The notes under the pieces are model-generated. The model was not told the origin of the DNA. It worked only from the letters and a program-made list of their open reading frames with translations, and searched no databases. The position numbers and the translations under genes are program-made. A stretch of DNA of 63,965 nucleotides, filler included, from Collodictyon triciliatum (taxonomy: Eukaryota): assembly GCA_043381765.1 (NCBI GenBank). It is 11 parts of 11 records of this genome, joined end to end, with 100 filler letters (N's around TTAATTAATTAA, not from the genome) between each part and the next. Parts side by side here need not be neighbours in the genome. Positions count along the whole stretch, not along the records: positions 6,058 to 12,011 come from JBHJMP010004809.1; positions 12,112 to 18,064 come from JBHJMP010004810.1; positions 18,165 to 24,125 come from JBHJMP010004811.1; 8 more parts are not named here. One strand, written 5' to 3'. Below, piece by piece: positions 1 through 18,179 of the stretch. Every line of letters begins with the position of its first letter. The stretch's first letter is position 1.

Positions 1-276
1 ATTTTTGATATTTTTGATATTTTTGATATTTTTGATATTTTTGATATTTTTGATATTTTTGATATTTTTGATATTTTTGATATTTTTGATATTTTTGATA
101 TTTTTGATATTTTTGATATTCTTTATTTTTTTGATATTTTTGATATTTTTATTTTTTTTTGATATTTTTGATATTTTTGATATTTTTGATATTCTTTATT
201 TTTTTGATATTTTTGATATTTTTATTTTTTTGATATTTTTGATATTTTTGATATTTTTGATATTTTTGATATTTTT
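1..276. repeat. 9-bp tandem repeat (ATTTTTGAT)n
   Basis: Directly visible array at the window start; it produces the spurious (IFL)n ORF. Confidence 0.95.
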
Positions 277-351
277 CTAGTCGATAATTTTTTAATCTCG
301 ACTTTTATTTACTCTTCTCTTGTCTTCTCTTTTTTCGAGTCATTTCATTTA

Positions 352-579
352 CCTTGCAAAGTGGACTCCTCAACCATGGCCTTCTTTTCGCAGGAGGACT
401 TGATGGCCCTCTTGAACTGAGCGATGCGATCGGCGCACTTAAAGTCCTTTGAGCTCTTGAAAAGAGAGGCACACTCATGCGCGCTGAACTTGATCTCTTG
501 CTCAACGGCAGTGCGCGCTCCTTTCATTGCCATTCTCCTGTTGTCTCTTCTCTTGCGGCCCTCTCGCTTCTCCTTGCCT
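352..579 (-). CDS. Probable internal exon of a truncated gene of unknown function
   Basis: Open charged frame (...RRMAMKGARTAVEQEIKFSAHECASLFKSSKDFKCADRIAQFKRAIKSS...) bounded by a CAG acceptor and a GTAAAT donor on the minus strand. Confidence 0.4.
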
Positions 580-836
580 CTGTAAACGCAGAAATAAATG
601 CGTGTAATAGAAGATGAAAAGAGTATTGTGTCTTTGCTTCGTTTTCATCCACCTCTGCTTTTCGACGCTCATCGAGATCTTTTTCTTTATTTTCGTCTTC
701 TTTTTTTCATTTTTCTATCGCTCTTTCGAGTGATTGAGTCTTGTGCTGAAATTGCGCTTCGTTTCGTAAAATTTTTGAATTTTTGTGTGTTTGAATCTTT
801 GTGCGTTTGAATCTCTGACCGATTGTGGAAATTAGT

Positions 837-4275
<3,439 letters not shown>

Positions 4276-4359
4276 GGTTCCTGTAAGTGTTTATCAGAGT
4301 TGCAGGTTACTATCTGACGTATACATGAATCAAGGAGACGAGGTTTTCGAGGCAAATAA

Positions 4360-5706
4360 TTAGGAATATGACGACACTAGTAAGTGGACATAAAGGATGC
4401 AGAAGATGGAAAAGGAGACTAGCAAGGGTGTATAGAGTGGTTTCCATTCAGCCAAATGGCGTTGAGTTATATATTTTTTGTGAGCATGAAAAGAAAGAGA
4501 GGCAATATCCCCCAAAAACTCAAATGAAAGCTGAATGATAATCTGATAGAAGCAATCCAAGAGAGACGGGATTGTTTGAAATGGGGTATCAGGATATATG
4601 TTGAACAGAAAATACATCAGCAAAGGCGCGATAAAAATAGAACATAATTCGGAACTGATATCATCAAAAACATTTCTTGAACGAAACTTGATCGATTCAT
4701 CAATGAAAGAAGCCCTTTTTGGGTCCACCAACACAAAGAGGCTTGCATCTAATCTGCTTTCATCAACTGGACTCATTTCAAGAGGGACTATCTTATCTCT
4801 GCGAATAAGTGATGATATACACGCCGAAAATTGAGCAAAGAATAGCCTCGCATCATACGCCCATGAAAGTTGATGATGTATTGTGGCTGTAGACAGCATC
4901 CCAAGAAACGACCCAACCATATTCACCAGGATATACTTGTACGAACCGGACCCGCTAGTATTCAGATTGGACAAAAATAAGCGCTCTGCGAAAGCCATGT
5001 AGAAGCTGCATACTTTCAGAGTGATCAAGCGGCGTTCCATATGCTCCCTGGATAAGTTGAATATCACAAACGTCTGATACCATTTGGCCAATGCAAAGCA
5101 GAACGGGAAGATGAGGAAGCGGAAGAGCAGCTGTATGCGAAACGGCGAATCCAGGTAGAGCGGAAAGGCGTTTTGAAGCAGAAAGTTGACCAGGCCGAAC
5201 ATGACTAGCAGCCCTTTCAGCAGGGCCATCGGCGTGCCGTCCTTTGTGACGATGTGAAGGATTTCTTGTGTCCCGTCCGCAGCGGTGGGTTTCTCGGCCT
5301 TTGAAATCCTCATCAAGCCGAGTATCAGCCCAAGTACGACTGTCGCACTTGAAATCATGTTGAACTCAAACAGCGGAATCTGCACAAAAGCGCACAGGAC
5401 AAGATGCAGCGCCATGAGAAACAAGGCGATGGAAATTGCCTGGCGGGAAAAGAGGAAACCAAAAGTCTCTGTATACATCAGGCAGATGCAAGGCCAAAGG
5501 CACATGATTGTAAGCACGTTTCTGACAACTTCGTAGAGCGCGGGGCTCACAAGTGAGAGCAGCTTTGTTGTCAGCACTCTCGATGGTAGATAATACAGCC
5601 ACATAAGCAGCACTATCGCAATTATCCGTGGCATCGTTTGGGTGAGAATGCCTATCCAAAGGATGCATGATTCTCGCACGGGGTTTGTAAAGTTGGCCCG
5701 AGGCAT
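4360..5706 (-). CDS. Uncharacterised multi-pass membrane protein (probably the terminal exon of a longer gene)
   Basis: 448-aa ORF with about 10 hydrophobic segments; a TAG acceptor lies just upstream of the ATG and the contig ends shortly after. Confidence 0.7.
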   Translation of the reverse strand: MPRANFTNPVRESCILWIGILTQTMPRIIAIVLLMWLYYLPSRVLTTKLLSLVSPALYEVVRNVLTIMCLWPCICLMYTETFGFLFSRQAISIALFLMALHLVLCAFVQIPLFEFNMISSATVVLGLILGLMRISKAEKPTAADGTQEILHIVTKDGTPMALLKGLLVMFGLVNFLLQNAFPLYLDSPFRIQLLFRFLIFPFCFALAKWYQTFVIFNLSREHMERRLITLKVCSFYMAFAERLFLSNLNTSGSGSYKYILVNMVGSFLGMLSTATIHHQLSWAYDARLFFAQFSACISSLIRRDKIVPLEMSPVDESRLDASLFVLVDPKRASFIDESIKFRSRNVFDDISSELCSIFIAPLLMYFLFNIYPDTPFQTIPSLLDCFYQIIIQLSFEFLGDIASLSFHAHKKYITQRHLAEWKPLYTPLLVSFSIFCILYVHLLVSSYS

Positions 5707-5814
5707 TCTATTTTTAAGATTTATGCCCTTGTATGTGTTTGTTTGTTTTTTGCGTCTTTGCGTTTTTGCGTTTTTCTTTTGTCTTTTCTATTGTTTTTGC
5801 ATATTGTATTGTAT

Positions 5815-5957
5815 GTTTTTATGTTTTTTTATGTTTTTTATGTTTTTTATGTTTTTTATGTTTTTTATGTTTTTTATGTTTTTTATGTTTTTTTATGTTT
5901 TTTTATGTTTTTTTATGTTTTTTTATGTTTTTTTATGTTTTTTTATGTTTTTTATGT
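5815..5957. repeat. (TTTTTTATG)n tandem repeat at contig end
   Basis: Directly visible. Confidence 0.9.
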
Positions 5958-6057
5958 NNNNNNNNNNNNNNNNNNNNNNNNNNNNNNNNNNNNNNNNNNN
6001 NTTAATTAATTAANNNNNNNNNNNNNNNNNNNNNNNNNNNNNNNNNNNNNNNNNNNN
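5958..6057. other. Artificial contig spacer N44-TTAATTAATTAA-N44 (also 12012-12111, 18065-18164, 24126-24225, 30176-30275, 36226-36325, 42274-42373, 48320-48419, 54365-54464, 60408-60507)
   Basis: Identical 100-nt linker with six-frame stops. Contig lengths between linkers fall almost monotonically from 5954 to 5943; the one exception (5961) contains an internal 20-N gap. Confidence 0.99.
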
Positions 6058-6103
6058 ACTCTCGTCTTCTTGACAGGATAAAAGCAAAGAGTCTTGGAGT
6101 CAC

Positions 6104-9100
6104 ATGGTGGACGTCAGGTTTGCAGTTCTTTGTTTTCTTTTCTTCTTTTCTTCTTTTCTTCTTTTCTTCTTTTCTTCTTTTCTTCTTTTCTTCTTTTCTT
6201 CTTTTCTTCTTTTCTTCTTTTCTTCTTTTCTTCTTTTTCTTATCACTTAATACCTTATTCCCAAATCTATAACCATCATTTTGGTTTCATACCGGTCAGT
6301 ATTGTACAGCTGTTGTTTGATTCGAAGGATTTGGCAGACCAGGCTTTGTTTGATGAGCAAGGGCAACTGGAAGAGGTTCTTGATGACATCACATCTGTGC
6401 ACAGACATTCCTACGTCGACTCACTTTTGTTTTGTTTTGTTTTGTTTTGTTTTGTTTTGTTTTGTTTTGTTTTGTTTTGTTTTATTTTGTTTTGTTTCAA
6501 TAAGAGTTCGTAGTTTCTGATTAGAAATGAATGCATCCTTGTGCAGGATTACCAACAGTATCTGGCCGACCTTGCCTCCTACAGCCTGGAGCAATTGTCG
6601 AAGGCAGACTTTAATACTTCACATTAAAATCTACTGGATATAAGCTGCAAGACACCATTCGTTCATAAGTGACTCCTTTCTTTTCTTTTCTTTTTTTGTT
6701 ACCTAGCTTTTCCTTCCCTTTTTTTTCTTTTTTTCTTTTTTCTTTTTTCTTTTTAGAAATATAATGGAATGCCATTTCATTTGCAGGAACCAGATTCTCT
6801 TAAAATGGAGCTGAATGTTGCAAAACAGAAGCTTGAAGACCTTGCATCCAAAAACTACAAGTCATTTGTAAGAACGTATGAGACCGTCGTCGGGGTTCAT
6901 CAAGGGGTCCGTTGTGGATCATTTTTTTAAAATACAAAATGCATGAAACGCCTCTTTAATTGACAATTGGCAGATATTTCTATTCTACTTGGGGACGTTA
7001 TCATTAAATGATCCACCCAAAATATAATCGTGATTATCCAGAAAAGTAACGTTTTTTTTCTTTTTGTGATTTATACTTACTTGTCAGATGAATCATGTGA
7101 GTTCGTCACTCGGCTCTCTCATCAAGCACATTCCATCTTTATCGGAAGCAATAAAGTCTTTTGAATCTAACGCTAAAAGCATATCTCAACTTCGCCGCGC
7201 CAACCAAGTGACTCTGCAGAATTATACACAGCTGATCGAGGTATTATTAACTTTGATTTTATTTCTGGTTGATATAATTGATTTTATATAAAAAAATCAA
7301 CAAAAGGCTGTATCATTTTTTGTTCCACATTGATTTATTGCACATATTCTAAAAATGTCAAATCAATTTTTACATATTTTACTAATAAATGATGATGGAT
7401 TTATACATATCATTTTTTTTTAAAAAAAAAAAACTCCTGGAGTACATTTTATCACTAAATATTATACTTAACGAAGAAATTTGATATAGTTACTTGAAGT
7501 TCCCCAACTGATGGACAACTATGTGCGAAACAAGCTTTATGATGAGTCCTTGGAAATTCTGAGCTTTTCTCAAAGACTTTCAACCCTTCACCCTGACATA
7601 TTAGTCATCACCAACTTGGTAGGTCCTCACAATATATTCAGTGTAGCTTACCATTAAACGTGCATTTTACTTCAAACATTTTCATATGAGAAAACTGAAT
7701 AGATAATTATTTGTCAACTGTTCTGATTCCATCCATCTCTCTACTTGCTTCGTTCGTTTATGATATAATTCATGAAATTACACTTTTTTGAAATTGTACT
7801 CTCGCAAACCACTCAGGTAAACGAAATTTCGGCATCATCAAAGAACATGCAAGAACAGCTTATGAGCGAGCTGCAGTCCAGTTCACAACTTCCTGTCTGT
7901 CTTCGAGTTGTTGGCTACTTGAGGCAATACTGACCTTTTGTTTTCTTTTTTCTTTTTTCTTTTTCTTTTTCTTTTTCTTTTTCTTTTTCTTTTTCTTTTT
8001 CTTTTTCTTTTTCTTTTTCTTTTTCTTTTTCTTTTTCTTTTTCTTTTTCTTTTTCTTTGTATTTCCTGATATTCATGAATAAAAGGCGAAAATAATTAGT
8101 TTTTCCTTGAAAATTTTATTTTGATACCAAATTTTGGCAATTTTTTTCATAGAAAGTTTTAATAAACTCTTTCATAACCTTCTTTTATTTTACTTTTCTC
8201 TTCACTCCAACCCCAAGGCGCCTGGCAAATTATTCTGAACTTGAGTTGAGAATTTGCTTCTTGAAATGCAGAGAAAACTGGTTTTACAGCATCATCGATA
8301 AAATACCAACAGAGGACCCCTATATTTTTGTAAAGTTATTAATACAATACAGTACGAATTCAAATTAAATATAAATGTCAAAATATTCCATTCATTTTAA
8401 TTATTTATTTGTGATGGAATAGCTGAGTAAATTCATCGATGCCTGTCGCGTGCATTTGTTTGAAATCATCACACATTTTCGAGCAATTTTTGCTGATGAT
8501 GGCTCAGATGTTGACGACGTATGTTTAATGCCCAAAGATATAATCAATTATGGACATGGATGCTGCTATGATGCTGACCTTTTTCTCCTAAACAAACAAA
8601 TAATATTTATAATGATAATTGAAAGGCATTCCGCGAGAGCAGCGTATTGCATGGATGGGTAGCAGAGAAAATCAACTCTTTCTTGTTCACGTTAAAAAAG
8701 TAACAGAATAAGTTTCAAATTTAATTTGCGACTTACAATAATGATTGGAAGCAGGCATTGATATTTCAAGTTCTGTGGTTGACTAAAGTTGTCAAATTTC
8801 TCAACAGCTCATTGCCGCTTATATCGGATGGAGGTTATATATCAAACATTCTCGAGCAATGCATGTATTATGGAGATTCACTCGGGCGTACTTTTGTTGA
8901 CTTTCGAGGTATATTTTGCTCGTGTGTTACATATTTGATTCCTTCTTTCTCAGGAGAGATTTGTTGTATCACCACCCCATTACCATGTGTCCTATCAGTT
9001 CCAAATTGGGTGTCAAGACAAAATACAGTTATATTAGCGATGCATCAGTGAAAAAGAAAGCACATACCAAATGTTTAGCTGTGAATAACGGCATGGAGAC

Positions 9101-10779
9101 GATAATCAAATGTTTCTTTGCTGAATACAATGATATAGCGTTGTGTTAATCGAATATTTGTATTAGGCTTGCTTCCACCTATCTTCGAAGATGTTGTGAC
9201 CAAAATGTTTTCAAAACACATGTCAAATGCATTGTCTTCGTTGAAACAAAACCTAGAAAACACGAAATGGATGACCTCGTCTTCATTTCAATACTCTACC
9301 AACTTGCCGACAGGTTTGACTGTGAATAAATAAGCAATTCTTTTCTTACAGATATCAAATTAGTTCAAGTCCAGAGTTTTGTGTCTTGTATTCGTGGATT
9401 TTTTTCAAGGATAAAAACTGTGTAGATATCGTTCGTTTCTTGTTCGCCTCTTTGTTTTGTATTTGTTAAAATCGAAATCATTCTCAATGTAGTATATCCC
9501 CTATCTTTCTTTATGACACAGGTGATGAATCGGACCTGTCGCCGCCAACCGTTTTGATGCAATACCAACCCCTTGCTCTGTTCACCAACGAAATTCTCTC
9601 AGGCTTCAACGAGCTTAGGTTGAACATTCCCCTGCATCAAAGACTATATAATTAGTTTTGTATATGTTTAATCGGTAATATCACCACTATTGTTAAATGT
9701 ACTTTTGGGACGTACCGAAGTGTATCAGAAGAGTAATAAAAGAAAAATCCATTAATCCAGACAGTGCGCTCTTCTCTCCATTCAAGTCCAGCTGGGCCAA
9801 ATATTTTATTTCACATTGGTAAAATGAGTTACTCATAAAATAAACATAATCTTCTGACTGCGTACTTAATTTCCGCCATCGGGCTCCTCAAACTTTTTTT
9901 TAAAGGTCGAGTTTGCGGACAGAATCGAACAGTATCGGGTATCAGTTCCACAAAAAGGGAGCGAGGAAACAGTACTGAAAGGATTTTGCAAGGTGACCAT
10001 TAAAAAAACAAAATATTCATTACTCTTTGAAATACATATAAGTATATCTTCTTTGGTAATTCCAACATGAAGAAAGGAAGAAAAAGGAAGGATTTTTTTT
10101 TACAATACAACACCCCCAAAACGAGCATGTTTGTCTCCTCTGTGACTGCTTTTCTTGTATTTCATAAGGCGGCGGTCGAAGTATTTTTACCATATGTCCT
10201 CCGGTGTTACGATACTGTCTTTGGCTCCCCGAGACCACTGATTGATAAATCGAAACTGGTACGAACGGCCCAACTCTTACTATTTCCAAATACCTCCATT
10301 TATGATTCCATCATGCAACTTGTTGTCTGACTGACTTTTATTCATGTTTGGCTGCTGCACTCGCCTTTTTTTGTTTGAGATTCTGATTTGAGCTGAATGC
10401 GCTCTAGATTGACCACTTTTCCAAGCTGCACAAAACCGAAATGATTGAGTTTGGTAGTTTGCTTTTCTCCAAGGCCGCGACAAAGGAAGGATTTGAGACT
10501 GTTCACAAGAAAGTGGTAGTGGGTGAAATGGACGACCACCTTATCGCTGGAGAAGCAGCTTTGACAAAAGAAGAGGACGAAAAAGATGAGAAAGAGAAAG
10601 ATGCGGAAGAGGAGGACCTGGTTGACCGCGTTCTACGGAATTCGGGAGAGGACTCGAACCAAGAAAACCATGAACCTCCGAAGCAAGACTCATTGACTTC
10701 TGCTGATGAATTGACCAGCAAGTATGCAACTGGAGAGGCCGATGGCTGGGATGAGCAAGACGCCACACCAAACGATTGA
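6104..10779 (+). CDS. COG8: Conserved oligomeric Golgi complex subunit 8 (Dor1 family), many exons
   Basis: Exon peptides SLEQLSK|EPDSL..LEDLASKNYKSF, LLEVPQLMDNYVRNKLYDESL, SQLPVCLRVVGYLRRL..ELELRICFLKCRENW, RVHLFEIITHFRAIF, ILEQCMYYGDSLGRTFVDFRGLL and PPTVLMQYQPLA..TNEIL..FNELR match the COG8 pattern. Acidic last exon 10472-10779. Confidence 0.9.
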
Positions 10780-12116
10780 CAGCGCTCTGATTGAGTAGCT
10801 TTTTTCCCTTCCATTTGGATTTTATTCTAATGTCCTTTTGTCTGAAGCACAGAAATAAAATAGAATGTGACTGGGGAAAGAAAAAGCGTATCGGTCGGTA
10901 CTTTTTGTGTGTTGCTTGATTGTGTTTATAAAAGTAATAAATTTGTGTATGTATTTGAATGGAAAGGAAGGAGAAAGATGCGCTCTATGCAGCAAATGGG
11001 ATGATATGGTTTATCCTTTTTTGCTGTTCTATTTGTTTCCTCCTTCACTTCTTTCTGGGGGTTCTTTTAGAGGTGGTGTTAACCAAATAGGCGCGCTTTT
11101 CTCCTGAGGTTGAGAATGAGTGACACTAACGCACGCAATTTTCTCTCCCCATACTCCTCACACAAGGGTCTGACTCTGTTATTCGCAGTGTGGCATACTC
11201 CAATGTCTAATAATCAAATTCAGCCTTTTTTTTTAAGTTGAGCGTGGGTATCTTCCAATATCCTTTTTTTTTTTTTTCATTCACTTTTTTCTTGTTGATT
11301 GTAATCATTATCTAACAATCATTCCATTTGGCATGTGAACACGCGACTATCTTGACTAATTTATCAAAAACCAAGCATAATTGTTCATAATTTTTATTTC
11401 CTTTTTTCTTTTCTTCTTTGTGGATATGCAAGGCGGGAAGATTTCGGACGCAGAGATACTCATACGATGCTCATATAATCCATTGTTCTCTACATCATGG
11501 TATACGAATCAGATGAATCACTTGGCCAAAAATATCCAATAAAACTTTGTGTTTTCTACTGGACTCTGGTAGAATGGACTCAAGTTCGAGCTCTCGTTTA
11601 TGCACTGTGCCTTTTAACTCTGAGTCAAGGGCAAGTAGCTCTGAAATCTAAGATATTTATAAATGAAACGGATTCAATGCAGGAAGAATAATCATTCAAA
11701 CACCAGGATGCATCCAATATGAAGGAAACAATTATTGGCGACGAAAACTAACAAAGACAACAGTTTTAACCTAATTTTAATTCATTCATCACCTCGTTTT
11801 GTGCAGCGTTGAGTATTTCGAGATTGCGAAGTCTGTTTATAGAATTGGGTAACCTTGATATCTGATGGATGTTTCATATATTTTAAAAGGCTTGCTATAA
11901 ATAGATATCTGCTCACATCCATAAATGAAAAGAAAAGAAGCTCATGATAATCTCAATTTTACGTTACATGGTTGTACGAGATGTCAAGGTGAACAAGAGA
12001 TGAAATAGAGCNNNNNNNNNNNNNNNNNNNNNNNNNNNNNNNNNNNNNNNNNNNNTTAATTAATTAANNNNNNNNNNNNNNNNNNNNNNNNNNNNNNNNN
12101 NNNNNNNNNNNATTTT

Positions 12117-12132
12117 CCCCAAAATTTTGGGG
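12117..12132. terminator. Perfect 16-bp palindrome CCCCAAAATTTTGGGG downstream of the last viral gene; possible 3'-end hairpin
   Basis: Palindrome is directly visible about 35 nt past the stop of the minus-strand gene run; function is inferred. Confidence 0.4.
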
Positions 12133-12165
12133 TAAGTATATAAAAAAATGGGCCAGTCTTCAACT

Positions 12166-12330
12166 CTAGATATTTATTTTTTCAAGCTCACGGTCAGGAC
12201 TAGGCTCACGCGTTTCCATCACGCTACCACAACACTGAGACTTGCGAACGTGTTTTAAATAATACTTCATCGCACGCTCAGCAATCAAACACAAGTTAAT
12301 AATCAACGATACAATCAACACCGGGTCCAT
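12166..12330 (-). CDS. Small viral single-pass membrane protein with KSQCCG motif (54 aa)
   Basis: MDPVLIVSLIINLCLIAERAMKYYLKHVRKSQCCGS... Start moved from the track's GTG (12354) to ATG 12330, which carries the shared TCTT-N9-ATG motif and removes the overlap with the fibre gene. Confidence 0.7.
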   Translation of the reverse strand: MDPVLIVSLIINLCLIAERAMKYYLKHVRKSQCCGSVMETREPSPDRELEKINI

Positions 12331-12346
12331 AAAATAAAAAAGAAAT

Positions 12347-14488
12347 TTATCCACCGTACCGTGTCAACAACCAACCAAATTGGCCCCCTATTAATTCAGT
12401 AAACACACAATCATATTGTCGGGCTAGTGAACCACTATATGCAATAAAGGATTCTCCAGGCGCCTTATTATCAACAGACCCACTAGCGATTACAACCATT
12501 TGAATCCCTGAACCAGCTGTTGCCCCGTTTGTAAATGATATATCAGGGCCAGTGCCTCCAAAAATATAAGACACAATTCTTATTTCAAATCCAGCAGCTT
12601 CTCCCAACCAACTAGATGATTGTTTTAAATCTGGAAATATAATATTTCGTGTGCTGGTGTTTCTATTCAAAACTAAATATCTAGGTGAATTAAGATTAAT
12701 GGTATAATCACCTGTTGAAGTAAACCGCCCTGTTACTATTCTACCGTACTCTGTTATGTCTCGTACAATCCAATAACAATTAGCAGCGCTTCCAGCCCAC
12801 ACAAATGTAGCGCGAACTCTAAAATTATTTGTAATATTTTGAAAAAGATTATCGGTAGCTGTTGTATAATTTGCTGTAGTATTTTTTATAACTGGTCTGC
12901 CATCTCGAGGAAAAATATATCCCCTTGGTTGAACTAATGTAAACCTTACACCATATTGCATATCATTGCTATTTCCAAGCAATTGATATTCCATTTCAAA
13001 CCCATCAAATGATGCACCCATATTATCAAGTGTCACGAGTTTATTTTCTGTTATATTTTCAGATAAGAGCAAGGTTGCAGGGGAAGGATTACTTGTATTA
13101 TAAATATAAGCGCTTGCAGTCCCTCCTGGAACAACTTCAACTTTTTTAACTAATGATGGTGTTGATATACTTCCTGATATTGTTCCGCTTACTGTAAGGT
13201 CTCCTGTTATACTCATCCCTGAATTATTAATCTCAACCCTCTGAACTCGTGTCGGTAAAGTAGCACCTGTACCTGTTGCCCCTAGAAATCTAAAATACGT
13301 ATTCCCGTGCTCAGTTACAAATATTTCATTTGTTCCAGTACCACCAACTAGCCTACTCATAACCGTTTCAGTAGTTGGCCAGTTTGTGTTATTACCCAAC
13401 CTGTAATTTGCTACCGTTCCTGTACTAGAATCATTGAATGACAACTGTATGTAACCTGTAGCGCCTCCTGTACTTCCAATAAACTGAATTGTTTGACTTG
13501 GATTGCTGACATTATTACGAATTGTGCTTCCACCAGATAATCTAAAATTACCTCCAACAAATGCACCAATTTGAGTTCCTGCTGCAACTATTCCGACACC
13601 GATGTCAGCGCCGACCGCTGTTCTTACCAAACCTGTATTTGTAGCGTTAATAAAATTTAATCCGCATGCTGCAGTTGCCCCCACACCTCCATCTGCTATT
13701 GACATCGGCACAGATACCTCCACTTTTTGCGAATCTACAACTGGGACACTTCCAGATGTAACCATATTACCTGATACTGTTATGCAATTTGTTCCACACG
13801 CTCGTATAACAGTTTGGTTTAATTCTGTTCCGGAGACAGGATTATTTGGGAGTCTAACAAAACGAAATCCAGACGACGACATATTTGAACCCATTATACC
13901 GGAAGCGTCGTCACTTCCATTAACTGTTGTAATTCGAGACAATGCTACCAAACCATTATTATTTATACGTAGTCTAGCGGTTCCATTTGTAATTAATTCC
14001 AATTGATCATTTATTCCATTAATACCAGAGTTTGATTGTGGATCGTCAAATCTCAAAGAACAGTCTGATGTAGTTCCGACGTGTGTGATGTTTATCGGAA
14101 CACTACAAGTTAAAACATTGCTGACTAATGTCGGAGTAGGTGCCCAACTTGCTGCGCTATTATTTGATGTAAGAAATTGCCCATTATTTCCTGCAGTTTG
14201 TCCTGGCACCTGCGAAACTGGACTCCAAGAAACATCAGTTCCATTAGTTTGTAAAAAATTACCGGTCTGTCCTGCTTGCGGGGGTAATTCTCCTTCAATT
14301 CCGGTATACTGGTATCCGGTTGCTGTATCATTTACTTCCAAAAATTTATTTGCATCGGCTGCTGTTATTGTTGGCAAAATAAAAGATGTTTCTGTTGTGT
14401 CAGTATACTCTGAGTTTGTCCCGTCTGTTACAAAACTATAATCATAAGGGTACCTGCTCGAATTTGATCCGATTTCATATGAAGTCAT
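12347..14488 (-). CDS. Putative virion fibre/spike protein (713 aa)
   Basis: G/T/N/S-rich beta-type composition; three LP..aG..gxFLxxN..xxW-type shaft repeats; LELITNGTARLRINNNG and GDLTVSGTISG segments typical of viral fibres; directly downstream of the penton gene. Confidence 0.75.
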   Translation of the reverse strand: MTSYEIGSNSSRYPYDYSFVTDGTNSEYTDTTETSFILPTITAADANKFLEVNDTATGYQYTGIEGELPPQAGQTGNFLQTNGTDVSWSPVSQVPGQTAGNNGQFLTSNNSAASWAPTPTLVSNVLTCSVPINITHVGTTSDCSLRFDDPQSNSGINGINDQLELITNGTARLRINNNGLVALSRITTVNGSDDASGIMGSNMSSSGFRFVRLPNNPVSGTELNQTVIRACGTNCITVSGNMVTSGSVPVVDSQKVEVSVPMSIADGGVGATAACGLNFINATNTGLVRTAVGADIGVGIVAAGTQIGAFVGGNFRLSGGSTIRNNVSNPSQTIQFIGSTGGATGYIQLSFNDSSTGTVANYRLGNNTNWPTTETVMSRLVGGTGTNEIFVTEHGNTYFRFLGATGTGATLPTRVQRVEINNSGMSITGDLTVSGTISGSISTPSLVKKVEVVPGGTASAYIYNTSNPSPATLLLSENITENKLVTLDNMGASFDGFEMEYQLLGNSNDMQYGVRFTLVQPRGYIFPRDGRPVIKNTTANYTTATDNLFQNITNNFRVRATFVWAGSAANCYWIVRDITEYGRIVTGRFTSTGDYTINLNSPRYLVLNRNTSTRNIIFPDLKQSSSWLGEAAGFEIRIVSYIFGGTGPDISFTNGATAGSGIQMVVIASGSVDNKAPGESFIAYSGSLARQYDCVFTELIGGQFGWLLTRYGG

Positions 14489-14504
14489 ATAAAAGCATAT
14501 AAAA

Positions 14505-15380
14505 TTATTCTACGGGAACGAGCTTGAGCGTAATGTCAACACTTGCCGTCTGCGGGAAGTTAACTAGATTGTTGTACTGGTCAATAAATGTTATATTGAA
14601 TCGTGTAGGCAAAACCGAAAAGACTTGTTGCGTAAATTCTTCACTTGCTTCTTCTACGAATGTGTACTGGTATTTACTATTACTTAGATTCAATGGACAC
14701 CGATAAGCAATATCAAAACGCTCAGGGACATCTGTGTTGAAATTCAGATTTGTAATTCCCTGGATAGTCATAAAAAAATAAGAGTACGGTTGTAAATTTC
14801 CAGGATTCGGCAGATATTTTTTAGGAGTTGTTTGCAGAGGTAATTCAAATTCTGTGTTGTAATTGCATCCAATCACATAAGACCCACCGAAACCAAATTC
14901 ACCCTGGTACTGACTAAATTCATTATTAGATGTTATATAAACTCTTATTGCTGGTGTCGCAACTGTTTTTCTTTCAAAATAAAACCGATTGCGAATATCG
15001 TCATATCCCATATCATACTGGTCGTATCCAAAGCTTGCTAAAAAAGTATTTAATGCCAGGGCAACCGCTTGGGCATATTGTGAAGTGTTATATGTACCCT
15101 CATTAATTGTAATTGTTGAAAAAGTGCTTATAGTTGTGTTTGTATTCAATACTCGAATTCGCAATTGATTGTATTGATACAACTCTGTTATTTGGTGTAT
15201 CGTCGTGGGGTAGTACACATTTTTTATATATAGATTATATGACTTGTTTTTGATAACTGGGAAATCTGATAAATCAAAGGTGAAATTGTTGTTTGACCCA
15301 CTCACTCGTTTCGATTCCGAATTAATAAAAAGATAATTGGCCTCATTTGTATTTCTCTCGTTTAGCAGACGGCGTTGCAT
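14505..15380 (-). CDS. Putative minor capsid protein (penton, single jelly-roll), PLV/virophage type (291 aa)
   Basis: Pattern YLFINSE..SGSNNNFTFDL / VYYPTTIHQIT / TITINEGTYN..YAQAVALALN / NLQPYSYFFMTI / IAYRCPL / FNITFIDQYNNLVNF..DITLKL resembles PLV/Polinton pentons; size and position next to the MCP agree. Confidence 0.8.
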   Translation of the reverse strand: MQRRLLNERNTNEANYLFINSESKRVSGSNNNFTFDLSDFPVIKNKSYNLYIKNVYYPTTIHQITELYQYNQLRIRVLNTNTTISTFSTITINEGTYNTSQYAQAVALALNTFLASFGYDQYDMGYDDIRNRFYFERKTVATPAIRVYITSNNEFSQYQGEFGFGGSYVIGCNYNTEFELPLQTTPKKYLPNPGNLQPYSYFFMTIQGITNLNFNTDVPERFDIAYRCPLNLSNSKYQYTFVEEASEEFTQQVFSVLPTRFNITFIDQYNNLVNFPQTASVDITLKLVPVE

Positions 15381-15413
15381 AAATTACCATAGAATTTTTT
15401 TCTATATCAAATT
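15381..15413. promoter_or_regulatory. Bidirectional 33-bp viral promoter with symmetric TCTA boxes
   Basis: CAT-AAATTACCA-TAGA-ATTTTTT-TCTA-TATCAAATT-ATG: TCTA lies 9 nt upstream of each divergent ATG. Confidence 0.65.
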
Positions 15414-15788
15414 ATGGAGCAAGAATATGAAGAAGATATTGAACTTCCTGTTGCCGTGCCCGAAAAAAAGAAAAGAACACTGACCCCCAAGCAGCTCAAA
15501 AATTTGGAACTGATGAGGCAGAAAAAGATGGCCAAAAAAAAAGCATCTCAAATGATCGAGGAATCTGTTAGAAATTCGGCGAGAGACGCAGAGACCGAGG
15601 AATTCTCTAATCTAAAAAGTGAACTCTCTGAGATAAAAGAGCAACTAAAAAAGAAATCCAAACCCCGGGAAATTCCGAAGAAACGAAAAAAAGCTGAATC
15701 AGAATCAGAATCAGATGAACCAGAACTTGGTACAAGTTACAGACAATCAACAAATCCATACTTGAATCAACTTGTAAGATTTAAATAA
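15414..15788 (+). CDS. Small charged viral protein (124 aa), possibly nucleic-acid binding
   Basis: Lys/Glu-rich; KKKRTLTPKQLKNLELMRQKK motif and a short coiled coil; exactly fills the gap between penton and MCP and has the shared upstream motif. Confidence 0.75.
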   Translation: MEQEYEEDIELPVAVPEKKKRTLTPKQLKNLELMRQKKMAKKKASQMIEESVRNSARDAETEEFSNLKSELSEIKEQLKKKSKPREIPKKRKKAESESESDEPELGTSYRQSTNPYLNQLVRFK

Positions 15789-15815
15789 TTATTTTTTTAT
15801 AAAACAATTATTTAA
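15781..15815. terminator. Hairpin spanning the convergent stop codons of the 124-aa gene and the MCP
   Basis: TTAAATAATT-a-TTTT-tttat-AAAA-c-AATTATTTAA: 10-bp stem, one mismatch, 4-bp stem, 5-nt loop. Confidence 0.55.
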
Positions 15816-17593
15816 TAAAGAACTTGGGCGTTGTCTTTTCCGACGTCAAGAATACGTGTGTGCTCGATGATGACCCAGCAAGTATAATTATCTACAGGTG
15901 AGACATTTGAAACAGCAGCAGCAGCATTTTTTGCACTTGTGGCAGTTCCACCTGCTGTAACTTGATGCCCTTCTGGGCAAGAAGTACCAAACTGTAGACC
16001 AACCTGTACAATTCCAGAATTGGAAGATGCGTTGTATCCACTGAGCTCAAACTCGTCAGAATAATCTGATCGAGTCATTGACCACCCCAGTGCAAAATAA
16101 GTGGGAGTCTTCCAATATATTTCTTCACATTCTAAAGGTGAAGCTCCAAAATTGGCCGGCATTCTATTGGAATTAGCGCCGGCGGCAATTGCTCCAGTGT
16201 CAAACATGTTTGCCATTACTGCTTTATTCTGAGCATAATACATTCCAGCCCCTGATGTTGGAAAAACAGTCGGGACGTCAGCTCCAGTAACAATAAGTGG
16301 TCTTCCACAAACTTGTCCGAAATTCACCTGGCCAAGCATCTCAGCTGACGTATTGTATCCCAACGCTTTCATTAAATAATTAAGGGCTTCTGGTTGTTGA
16401 CATCCTGCTTGTCCATTAATTCCAGATGTCAAAAATCCAGATGCTGTTCCAGCAGCGGATGTTAAACTTGCTCCAGAAGACGGATATGTTAAATAACTTG
16501 GTCCATTCAGCAAAATTGGGACAGACGGGGAAACTTTTCCATTTATTGTAAGTCTTGCTTGAGCTAAACCTTCAATCGCATGAAGTCTGTCCGTTCCTAG
16601 GTATGATAATGTTCCTTGTTCAATATTTCGTGTAAAAATACAATAAATTGCGTTAATATTTGAGTACTGAATTGAAATATTTTGTGTAATCCATCCAGAT
16701 GAATTTTTTGGGATAGGAAATTGCGTCATGAAATAAGTTTCTATAGGTATTTGAAGATTATTATTGATCAGATATTGACTAAGCGCATTGTTATAGCTAG
16801 GTTCTGTTTGAATGTAATTAATATTCATTCGTATATTTGAAAGTCGATAAGATAAAGTTGTCTCAGTAACACCTGAAAAAGCAAAATAATTCCTAACAGT
16901 ATTTGCTGCTGCAGAAACCGTTCCATGAGTAAAACATTCACTAGCGGGTGACAACCAAATACGGATTTCCAATGAATTTGGCCCTAAAAGGTAAGCAGGT
17001 AAGAGAGTTTTGATATTCATAAGTCCTAAGTATCGTAACGGAAAACCGATTTGGATTGTATTGCTTGTAGTACTGTCATCAGGTATACCAACCAACAATT
17101 CACGACTTCTATCCAAAATAGATTTACCTACTCCCATTCCTCCACTCATTAGATTTACCCAATTTTGATTATTGCACCAATTGTGCTTGAAAGTCTCTAA
17201 ATACGAATAATTGTCTATGCGTTCCAATTCTGAGCCATTTAAGTAGACGGCGATGCGATAGATAAAACTTTCATAACTTTCACAAGGTGCCAGAATAGCC
17301 ACACTATCATCAGCTGTTAAAATACTATTTTTTAAATTTGCTACATTAGCTGCATCAGTTACTGCAGCTGTCAAATTCCGCACTTGCAAATCAGCAACAA
17401 TATGAGCGCTGTCCATCTGAATCGACCATTCATTGTCTATAGGCACGCGAAAAACAATTTGGGGGCCACTACTAAAACCCGCAGTCTGCTCCGTTCCATT
17501 GCTGGGCAAAACTTGCCTCATTTGCTTTTCCAAAATAGTTTTCTTTTTACTTGATACATTTCTAAACTGTAGCTCCTCCGGTAGTGAATCCAT
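15812..17593 (-). CDS. Putative double jelly-roll major capsid protein, PLV-like (593 aa)
   Basis: Pattern RQVLPSNG..FSSGPQIVFRVP / SFIYRIAVYLNGSELERIDNYSYL / KTLLPAYLL..LEIRIWL / YRLSNIRMNINYI / ARLTINGKVSPSVPI / C-terminal VIIEHTRILDV..AQVLY resembles PLV MCPs. Confidence 0.82.
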   Translation of the reverse strand: MDSLPEELQFRNVSSKKKTILEKQMRQVLPSNGTEQTAGFSSGPQIVFRVPIDNEWSIQMDSAHIVADLQVRNLTAAVTDAANVANLKNSILTADDSVAILAPCESYESFIYRIAVYLNGSELERIDNYSYLETFKHNWCNNQNWVNLMSGGMGVGKSILDRSRELLVGIPDDSTTSNTIQIGFPLRYLGLMNIKTLLPAYLLGPNSLEIRIWLSPASECFTHGTVSAAANTVRNYFAFSGVTETTLSYRLSNIRMNINYIQTEPSYNNALSQYLINNNLQIPIETYFMTQFPIPKNSSGWITQNISIQYSNINAIYCIFTRNIEQGTLSYLGTDRLHAIEGLAQARLTINGKVSPSVPILLNGPSYLTYPSSGASLTSAAGTASGFLTSGINGQAGCQQPEALNYLMKALGYNTSAEMLGQVNFGQVCGRPLIVTGADVPTVFPTSGAGMYYAQNKAVMANMFDTGAIAAGANSNRMPANFGASPLECEEIYWKTPTYFALGWSMTRSDYSDEFELSGYNASSNSGIVQVGLQFGTSCPEGHQVTAGGTATSAKNAAAAVSNVSPVDNYTCWVIIEHTRILDVGKDNAQVLY

Positions 17594-17615
17594 ATTCTAA
17601 AAAAGAAAATAATTT

Positions 17616-18026
17616 TTAATAACCTATTTTATTTCTGATATTGTCGTCGTATGATTTTATGACTTTTCCCAGGGATTCGTTTCGTTGTGCAGCTCCGCGA
17701 ATTACAGGCGCGTATTTATTTACTTGGTCAACACCTTTTTTAAATTGCCCCTCGTATTTTGTCCCTTCTACAAGACCCGCAACTGTTGCGCCTTTTTTTC
17801 CTTCTGCCAAATCCAAGCCTTTTTTCACGTATCCTTTATTTGCATTGTACACCTTCAACGCCTGCTCCGACAATCCACCCGTGGCTGTACGAGCCAAGTC
17901 CCTCAATCCCCCACCGGTTGCTTTATCAACGGCATTGACTACTTTCTCACCGACATTCATCCCCTTCCTAACAACTTTTACTAGACCTTTTGTGAATCCC
18001 CTCAAGCTTCTCCGTGTGAATACCAT
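17616..18026 (-). CDS. Basic Gly/Lys-rich viral protein with amphipathic N-terminus (136 aa); candidate core/membrane-lytic protein
   Basis: MVFTRRSLRGFTKGLVKVVRKGMNVGEKVVNAVDK; two ATGG sites; immediately upstream of the MCP; has the shared upstream motif. Confidence 0.7.
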   Translation of the reverse strand: MVFTRRSLRGFTKGLVKVVRKGMNVGEKVVNAVDKATGGGLRDLARTATGGLSEQALKVYNANKGYVKKGLDLAEGKKGATVAGLVEGTKYEGQFKKGVDQVNKYAPVIRGAAQRNESLGKVIKSYDDNIRNKIGY

Positions 18027-18179
18027 ATCATTACTTATAAAAAAATCTAGGTCAACTCCTCCTCNNNNNNNNNNNNNNNNNNNNNNNNNNNNNNNNNNNN
18101 NNNNNNNNTTAATTAATTAANNNNNNNNNNNNNNNNNNNNNNNNNNNNNNNNNNNNNNNNNNNNAAAAAAAAAAAAAAA

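Follow-up and report, generated by a model that had tools for sequence, protein, structure and literature searches.

A contig of 5953 bp in the genome assembly of the eukaryote Collodictyon triciliatum (GCA_043381765.1) very probably represents the module for virion morphogenesis of a polinton-like virus (PLV), a small double-stranded DNA (dsDNA) virus that infects eukaryotes and belongs to the adenovirus/PRD1 double jelly-roll lineage. The contig occupies positions 12112-18064 of the window, by which we mean the whole 63,965-base stretch of DNA that was analysed. As the window is composed of separate contigs chained by N44-TTAATTAATTAA-N44 spacers, adjacency in it is without genomic meaning, and the element studied here is contig 12112-18064 alone. 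Judged by their predicted structures, two of its proteins are the major capsid protein and the penton of a virion, and the contig appears to break off in the last codons of a packaging ATPase gene. We regard the element as one more, apparently new representative of a very large group of viruses that is already known, and not as a new kind.

Predicted double jelly-roll major capsid protein

The protein of 593 amino acids (aa) encoded at 15812-17593 on the minus strand is predicted to be the major capsid protein. Its AlphaFold2 model, based on an alignment of 37 sequences, had a predicted local distance difference test score (pLDDT) of 80.6 and a predicted template modelling score (pTM) of 0.84. 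The comparison of this model with PDB by Foldseek gave 238 matches at E<=0.001. The capsid protein of Singapore grouper iridovirus (SGIV) was the best of them (1.4e-14), and those of Sputnik (1.5e-13), mavirus (5e-13), African swine fever virus (ASFV; p72), faustovirus, and Paramecium bursaria chlorella virus 1 (PBCV-1) were also found. The same search in BFVD returned 102 matches at E<=0.001, namely capsid proteins, including adintovirus, virophage, and giant-virus entries. In structural alignments by VIA-align, the Z scores were 19.6 for PBCV-1 (338 residues, root-mean-square deviation 3.2), 19.0 for faustovirus, 17.8 for ASFV, 17.7 for SGIV, 17.6 for vaccinia D13, 16.3 for Sputnik, 15.2 for mavirus, 12.9 for the adenovirus hexon, and 12.5 for PRD1 P3. 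As these alignments span from about residue 15 to residue 593 of the model, both jelly-rolls are covered. The matches of the model were solely capsid proteins, those of nucleocytoplasmic large DNA viruses (Nucleocytoviricota), virophages, adenoviruses, and PRD1-type phages. Thus, AlphaFold2, Foldseek, and VIA-align bear out the assignment of the 593-aa protein as a major capsid protein of double jelly-roll type, which a first-pass annotation of this DNA had proposed. The protein would assemble into trimeric pseudo-hexagonal capsomers.

At the level of sequence, a word-indexed search (E<=1e-3) identified 38 homologues of this protein, ranging in identity from 91% to 33% and residing on contigs of at most 24,938 bp. 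When 1.84 billion cluster representatives were scanned exhaustively with HMMER, 26 clusters proved akin to it, and Pfam, applied to 10 of these 26 distant relatives, recognised no capsid family in them, giant-virus models included. The comparison of the 593-aa protein with PDB by sequence gave no match, and profile searches against the Sputnik and mavirus chains were also empty. Best matches to tailed-phage or cellular proteins, which would speak for another kind of element, were looked for with Pfam, with PHROGs, and, among 50,697 phage records, by tblastn with the capsid protein; none appeared, and the tblastn search had no match.

The variation of the capsid protein is patchy. Among the 18 closest relatives, the mean identity falls to 0.27-0.59 in residues 61-100, 161-180, 221-240, 361-400, 421-480, and 541-560, and amounts to 0.77-0.99 in the blocks between these patches, save one block at 0.69 and one at 0.70. 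This pattern fits exposed loops over a conserved core.

Predicted penton protein

A stretch of 431 bp with one small gene in it separates the capsid gene from the penton gene downstream (14505-15380, minus strand), which encodes a protein of 291 aa. Its AlphaFold2 model, obtained with an alignment of 12 sequences (pLDDT 74.3, pTM 0.65), is a single jelly-roll with an insertion domain. In the Foldseek search, the mavirus penton occupied ranks 1-6 (best E 2.3e-11), and the matches below it comprised adenovirus penton bases (2e-8 and weaker), the Sputnik penton (1.8e-5), and a PBCV-1 vertex chain. When the model was aligned by VIA-align with 48,161 chains, the Z scores were 14.7 for the PBCV-1 penton, 12.2 for that of mavirus, 11.9 for the fowl adenovirus penton base, and 10.0 for the Sputnik penton. 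All seven chains at Z>=8 derive from capsid structures of double jelly-roll viruses, and the next ones (Z<=6.5) are generic beta-sandwiches. The word-indexed search with the 291-aa protein identified five homologues only. Additionally, the syntenic penton proteins of two more distant loci, L008 and L001, are 41% (E 2e-76) and 46% (E 4e-89) identical to it. The model and the two structure-search methods agree with the earlier assignment of this protein as a single jelly-roll penton, and we assign it as such on the basis of its predicted fold. It would form pentamers at the twelve vertices of the capsid.

Probable packaging ATPase and the gene order of related loci

The last 18 bases of the contig (18047-18064, minus strand) encode EEELT followed by a TAG stop. 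In L006, a related metagenome locus whose capsid protein is 68% identical to that of the contig, the gene directly upstream of that for a small basic protein encodes a 240-aa Pox_A32-type ATPase (E 3e-13), which ends with ...NFEEELT, and a metagenome contig of run X1, which extends past position 18049, translates to ...FKNFEEELA*. As the tail in the window is identical to the C-terminus of the L006 ATPase and syntenic with it, the contig appears to break five codons before the end of the ATPase gene. The first-pass annotation had read this tail as a sign that the element continues; that proved correct, and by its sequence and position the tail is assigned as the end of an A32-type (FtsK-HerA) packaging ATPase gene. 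Such ATPases were found in seven distinct related loci (L001, L006, L008, L009, L011, L014, and L015), with Pox_A32 E values of about 1e-13 to 1e-15.

The relatives detected through the capsid gene comprise fourteen metagenome loci and one locus of IMG/VR, L001, which is the same contig as L010; scans of IMG/VR with the capsid and the penton alignments each returned L001 only. Gene order could be judged in the loci that were long enough, L001, L008, and L009. In them, the small basic protein is followed by the capsid, the opposite-strand charged protein, the penton, and the fibre, and this order persists down to 33-37% capsid identity. The same order in the contig itself, which had been noted at first sight, agrees with the list of its open reading frames (ORFs).

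The relatives also indicate what the rest of the genome may look like. L001 (12.9 kb, positions 1-12855) encodes a GIY-YIG nuclease, ThyX (E 3.5e-44), the A32 ATPase, and a D5-like helicase, and L006 and L014 encode DUF5906/VapE-type superfamily 3 (SF3) helicases. In L008 (1-15603), the A32 ATPase is followed by the capsid, penton, and fibre genes, and the fibre and small-protein genes lie close to the right terminal inverted repeat (TIR). The TIRs of L008 are 69 nt long (1-69 and 15486-15554) and 91% complementary, and L008 is therefore a complete or nearly complete linear genome. It also encodes a protein of 1262 aa, a size fit for replication, in which the sole Pfam match is an endonuclease VII domain at residues 530-574. 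Among the relatives, a match to the rve integrase, and a weak one, was seen in L008 only. The longest contigs bearing members of the family measure 12.9-24.9 kb. Judged from these relatives, the whole genome would be about 13-25 kb long, and its missing part would be situated past the end of the ATPase gene and comprise a replication module (a D5/SF3 primase-helicase or another replicase), to which some relatives would add an integrase and TIRs.

L001 is catalogued in IMG/VR inside a giant-virus metagenome bin, which reflects either mis-binning or a hint of giant-virus association. A full-text search of the literature for the IMG metagenome number of L001 brought up no publication.

Coding content and selection

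The coding fraction of the contig is 0.97. Its GC content is 0.381, and its stop codons are TAA (five times) and TAG (twice). In 500 shuffles of the contig, the longest open frame had a mean length of 106 aa and a maximum of 182 aa, and the real contig has frames of 720, 594, and 292. All genes are intact and evolve under purifying selection, with dN/dS of 0.05-0.31 against relatives; the ratios are 0.05-0.14 for the capsid gene and 0.06-0.13 for the penton gene. The first-pass annotation had described the contig as nearly fully coding, unlike its neighbours. The former holds. As to the latter, two neighbouring contigs, 30276-36225 (588 and 537 aa) and 42374-48319 (696 aa), likewise have long open frames, and compactness by itself is therefore not distinctive of contig 12112-18064.

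Unequal histories of the capsid and penton genes

The capsid and penton genes of the same pair of contigs differ in divergence. Between the window and L005, another metagenome relative, the capsid proteins are 68% identical, and the pentons are 91% identical over the 208 residues present. The synonymous divergence (dS) is 0.53 for the penton gene and about 3.0, which is saturated, for the capsid gene. The comparison with L002 shows the same trend (dS of 1.57 for the capsid and 0.78 for the penton gene). As the penton dS is far below the capsid dS, the higher identity of the penton is not merely due to stronger protein constraint. Along the alignment with L005, the sliding nucleotide identity is 0.51-0.81 in the capsid gene and 0.55-0.66 in the gene of the charged protein, reaches 0.73 across the penton start, and amounts to 0.87-0.91 deeper inside the penton gene. 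Moreover, the penton cluster at 90% identity has 47 members, and some contigs of this cluster (16,000, 24,938, 7,532, and 7,285 bp) match in size those with capsids merely 70-72% identical to that of the window. In the simplest reading of these sequence comparisons, the penton, together with the fibre anchor, would have moved by recombination between strains with divergent capsid genes. Such unequal divergence of two capsid components on the same genomes offers a concrete case in which the reshuffling of vertex, fibre, and shell genes could be studied, and the lineage as a whole would be a swarm of recombining freshwater strains.

Putative modular fibre protein

The gene that follows that of the penton (12347-14488, minus strand) encodes a 713-aa protein rich in T, G, S, and N, a putative fibre or receptor-binding protein with 21 homologues. 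Pfam recognised no family in it, adenovirus fibre families included, and its comparison with PDB by sequence gave no match. The BLAST segment map of its homologues reveals mosaicism: five of them align with it end to end (33-81% identity), four share residues 1-119 only (72-80%), and a fifth shares residues 1-115 (75%), these N-terminal parts being joined to unrelated middles. The modules at about residues 240-446 and at residues 417-713 recur among relatives in other combinations. Residues 1-62 are conserved even in L001 and L008, and Y15, G23, D30, E33, P39, T42, A46, L50, V52, N53, and T57 are invariant in the N-terminus. We infer, by analogy with the fibres of adenoviruses and phages, that the protein consists of an N-terminal virion anchor and swappable host-recognition modules. 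The N-terminus would be anchored at the vertex, and the distal modules would recognise the host. A short motif rich in Tyr and Pro near the fibre N-terminus resembles the penton-binding tail motif of adenovirus fibres, which we take as no more than a lead. The docking of two penton copies with fibre residues 1-65, performed without alignments, scored 0.01, and this speaks neither for nor against such anchoring. The neighbours of the fibre in the protein atlas are viral hypothetical proteins at 0.92, including one cluster with T4_gp9_10_N on 11% of its members; these neighbours, too, are no more than a lead.

At 14120-14290 (fibre residues of about 67-123), the motif G-x-x-G-x-F-L-x-T/S-N-G/N-x-x-x-S-W occurs twice. 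Several copies of it are present in two otherwise unrelated long proteins, P0120 and P0121, as if it was a widespread shaft repeat of viral fibres, which it may be.

Occurrence in freshwater metagenomes

Parts of the stretch were found in 20 of the 24 public sequencing runs listed. The runs come from 12 studies, labelled as freshwater, wetland, riverine, aquatic, aquaculture, or subsurface metagenomes, and those marked as RNA contain small shares of it. For four runs, which belong to three studies, the Logan contigs were mapped onto the contig. Of their 209 pieces, 47 were at least 99% alike to it, and many others were 85-95% alike; among the 32 pieces listed, 10 had zero differences. The presence of near-identical pieces alongside the many at 85-95% indicates that very close strains and a cloud of related ones circulate in fresh water. 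Relatives are already present in public collections, one of them in IMG/VR.

Comparison with known viruses and alternative assignments

PLVs have small linear dsDNA genomes of about 14-40 kb, often with TIRs. According to two recent reports, the surveyed PLVs share a conserved core of capsid, penton, and A32 ATPase, carry phage-like fibres, and have replication modules that switch between groups (PMC12220804; bioRxiv 10.64898/2026.06.19.733378). The PLVs of aquatic protists (Aquintoviricetes and related ones, such as Gezel-14T/PgVV, the Tetraselmis viruses, and cryptophyte and other PLVs) resemble the element described here in their double jelly-roll capsid, penton, A32 ATPase, and modular phage-like fibres, and also in the features of its relatives: genomes of 13-25 kb, a variable replication module, an occasional integrase and TIRs, and a freshwater distribution. 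They differ from it in that no sequence similarity of the contig to any named isolate is detectable. A protein of Tetraselmis viridis virus S1 matches the capsid protein only in fold, and only in part (E 3e-11, rank 36 in BFVD). Moreover, many PLV fibres reportedly have Peptidase_S74, collagen, and laminin domains, which Pfam did not find in the fibre of the contig.

Several observations weigh against the assignment to PLVs. No sequence-level tie to any named virus or family emerged from Pfam, PHROGs, the sequence and profile comparisons with PDB, or the phage collection, so that the identification is at the level of fold, and the penton model is of moderate quality (12 aligned sequences, pLDDT 74). 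The contig holds only five codons of the ATPase and lacks replication and integrase genes, terminal repeats, and a host junction. In the relative with TIRs, L008, the rve match reaches 22.8 bits, which is below the Pfam cut-off of 32.6. Additionally, the best share of the sampled words of the stretch in one public run is 0.45, and none of the runs reaches half.

The folds by themselves match those of several other viruses. The structures of mavirus and Sputnik (6g45, 6g41, 3j26) align with the capsid model over 375-387 residues at Z of 15.2-16.3, and the penton fold, including the insertion domain, is shared with them as well (Foldseek E 2.3e-11, Z 12.2 and 10.0), as if the contig derived from a virophage in the strict sense (Maveriviricetes/Lavidaviridae), dependent on a giant virus. 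The placement of L001 in a giant-virus bin would also fit this. However, the identity in the structural alignments is 7-13%, no similarity to virophage capsids could be found by sequence, even by profile against the Sputnik and mavirus chains, and the Z scores of the capsid are higher with giant-virus capsids (17-19.6) than with virophage ones. Neither L001 nor L008 encodes a cysteine protease detectable at E<=0.01. A virophage origin of the contig in this strict sense is highly improbable; a virophage-like lifestyle as such would still be conceivable. The highest structural scores were those of Nucleocytoviricota (PBCV-1 Vp54 and penton, faustovirus, ASFV p72, iridovirus), with the capsid at Z of 19.6 and 19.0 and the penton at 14.7. 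PBCV-1 is among the best matches of both proteins, and faustovirus among those of the capsid. Together with the bin of L001 and with the small viruses with giant-virus-like capsid modules described in a recent report (bioRxiv 10.64898/2026.06.19.733378), this could mean that the contig stems from a giant virus, or from a mriyavirus-like genome with a length of 35-45 kb, instead of a PLV of 13-25 kb. We consider this about as improbable as the virophage origin, as L008 is bounded by TIRs at 15.6 kb and has both replication and morphogenesis genes within this length, the longest contigs of the family reach 12.9-24.9 kb, and the giant-virus capsid models of Pfam miss the capsid protein as well as its 10 distant relatives. 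Moreover, the giant-virus core genes seen in the relatives are the A32 ATPase and the D5-like helicase only. Giant-virus genomes are roughly ten or more times larger than the genomes of these relatives. Equally small is the probability that the contig represents a Maverick/Polinton proper, a self-synthesising transposon with a protein-primed polymerase B (pPolB), an rve integrase, and an adenoviral-type protease. It would have the same core of capsid, penton, and ATPase, and the weak rve match of L008 and its 1262-aa protein of replication size would be in line with it; but no pPolB or protease family was found in L001, L006, L008, or L014, and most relatives have D5/DUF5906 SF3 helicases instead. 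As to adenoviruses, the fold of the penton base (Foldseek E 2e-8, Z 11.9) and the adjacency of a long fibre gene to the penton gene are shared with them, whereas the penton of the contig has 291 aa against the 403-472 residues of the adenovirus penton chains matched.

A PLV remains the preferred assignment of the contig. It is a serious possibility, slightly short of an even chance, that the contig belongs to an endogenous PLV, integrated in the nuclear DNA of the eukaryote that was sequenced, and does not derive from free or episomal virus. According to a survey, PLVs often occur as many integrated copies in protist genomes (PMC12220804). The distant relative L008 combines its weak rve match with TIRs, and the GC content of the contig (0.381) is inside the range of its neighbours (0.326-0.463). 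On the other hand, the contig has no host junction, terminal repeat, or target-site duplication, and both the intactness of its genes under purifying selection and the wide occurrence of close strains in metagenomes are compatible with either an integrated or a free state; DNA of co-sequenced particles would be a further possible source.

The capsid family may belong among the groups of PLV size with giant-virus-like capsid modules that were binned as giant viruses, which are described in one report (bioRxiv 10.64898/2026.06.19.733378). A more far-reaching proposal would be that the contig comes from a PLV that replicates in, or has recently integrated into, the sequenced eukaryote, which would become the first host for a widespread freshwater PLV lineage. 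The capsid and penton of this lineage would be structurally nearer to giant viruses than to virophages and without a sequence-level tie to a named virus, and its penton and fibre cassettes would be swapped between strains with very different capsid surfaces. Taken as a whole, we regard this proposal as rather unlikely. If read depth and junction data agree, the presence of an intact capsid module among the contigs of a named eukaryote could link a common freshwater lineage with its host. Apart from the host link and the module exchange, the element is of the expected kind.

Small proteins and ends of the contig

Pfam and PHROGs searches with all six proteins of the contig gave zero matches above the cut-offs. 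The gene at 17616-18026 (minus strand) encodes a basic protein of 136 aa, which is rich in K, G, A, and V and has an isoelectric point (pI) of 10.1. In 11 distinct loci, homologues 34-83% identical to it immediately precede the capsid gene, and nine of them were aligned. Pfam recognised nothing in it, and its best score in the protein atlas, 0.87, was uninformative. Its most likely role, on a tentative view, would be that of a core or DNA-associated protein of the virion or of a minor capsid protein.

The charged protein of 124 aa (15414-15788, plus strand; pI 9.3), which is rich in Lys and Glu, has positional homologues between the capsid and penton genes, on the opposite strand, in seven loci. 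K20, L23, Q27, L31, M34, R35, and K41 are invariant in this family, and an NPYLNQLVR motif is conserved at the C-terminus. Our guess, held with low confidence, is that the protein plays a virion-internal scaffold or DNA-associated role. It also contains two basic clusters, PEKKKRT and PKKRKK, akin to classical nuclear localisation signals, the first of them within a conserved N-terminal block. If functional, these clusters would point to a nuclear phase, away from replication in a giant-virus factory.

The ORF at 12166-12354 (minus strand; TAG stop) encodes a small protein of 62 aa if started from GTG, or of 54 aa if started from ATG at 12330. It has one predicted transmembrane helix, with a Kyte-Doolittle maximum (window of 19) of 2.15 at residues 6-24. 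No homologue of this protein was present among the relative loci compared; its region is covered by metagenome contigs.

Beyond this last gene, the contig ends with 54 bp of non-coding DNA (12112-12165). It includes a perfect 16-nt palindrome, CCCCAAAATTTTGGGG, at 12117-12132, five bases from the left end of the contig. The repeat search found no terminal repeats on the contig and no inverted-repeat partner of the palindrome there. The palindrome-bearing end may be close to a genome terminus, or it may be a mere assembly break point. The C4A4T4G4 string at this end could be thought of as a telomere of ciliate type; we rejected this, as it is a single palindrome and not a repeat array. Spirotrich ciliates read TAA and TAG as an amino acid, and the use of both as stops in the genes of the contig also counters the telomere reading.

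Neighbouring contigs

The window contigs are nearly equal in size (5943-5957 bp), and most of them have microsatellites or homopolymers at their ends. Their genes include EMP70/TM9SF, in two distinct frames with about 950 bp between them, a Roc-COR GTPase with an adjoining kinase, and a DOMON-EGF protein. As these are eukaryotic nuclear genes, the assembly is eukaryotic. Rfam and tRNA scans of the whole window found zero RNA genes. At 31914-35364, the Roc-COR GTPase (588-aa frame) is followed on the same strand by the protein kinase (537-aa frame), and the two may be pieces of one host ROCO/LRRK-like gene; the intron-free stretches there are unusually long compared with the remaining host contigs. 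At 41256-42273, an ORF with a DOMON domain is followed by a near-identical second copy, which reaches the contig end (41955-42273); the host sequence there contains either a tandem duplication or an assembly repeat.

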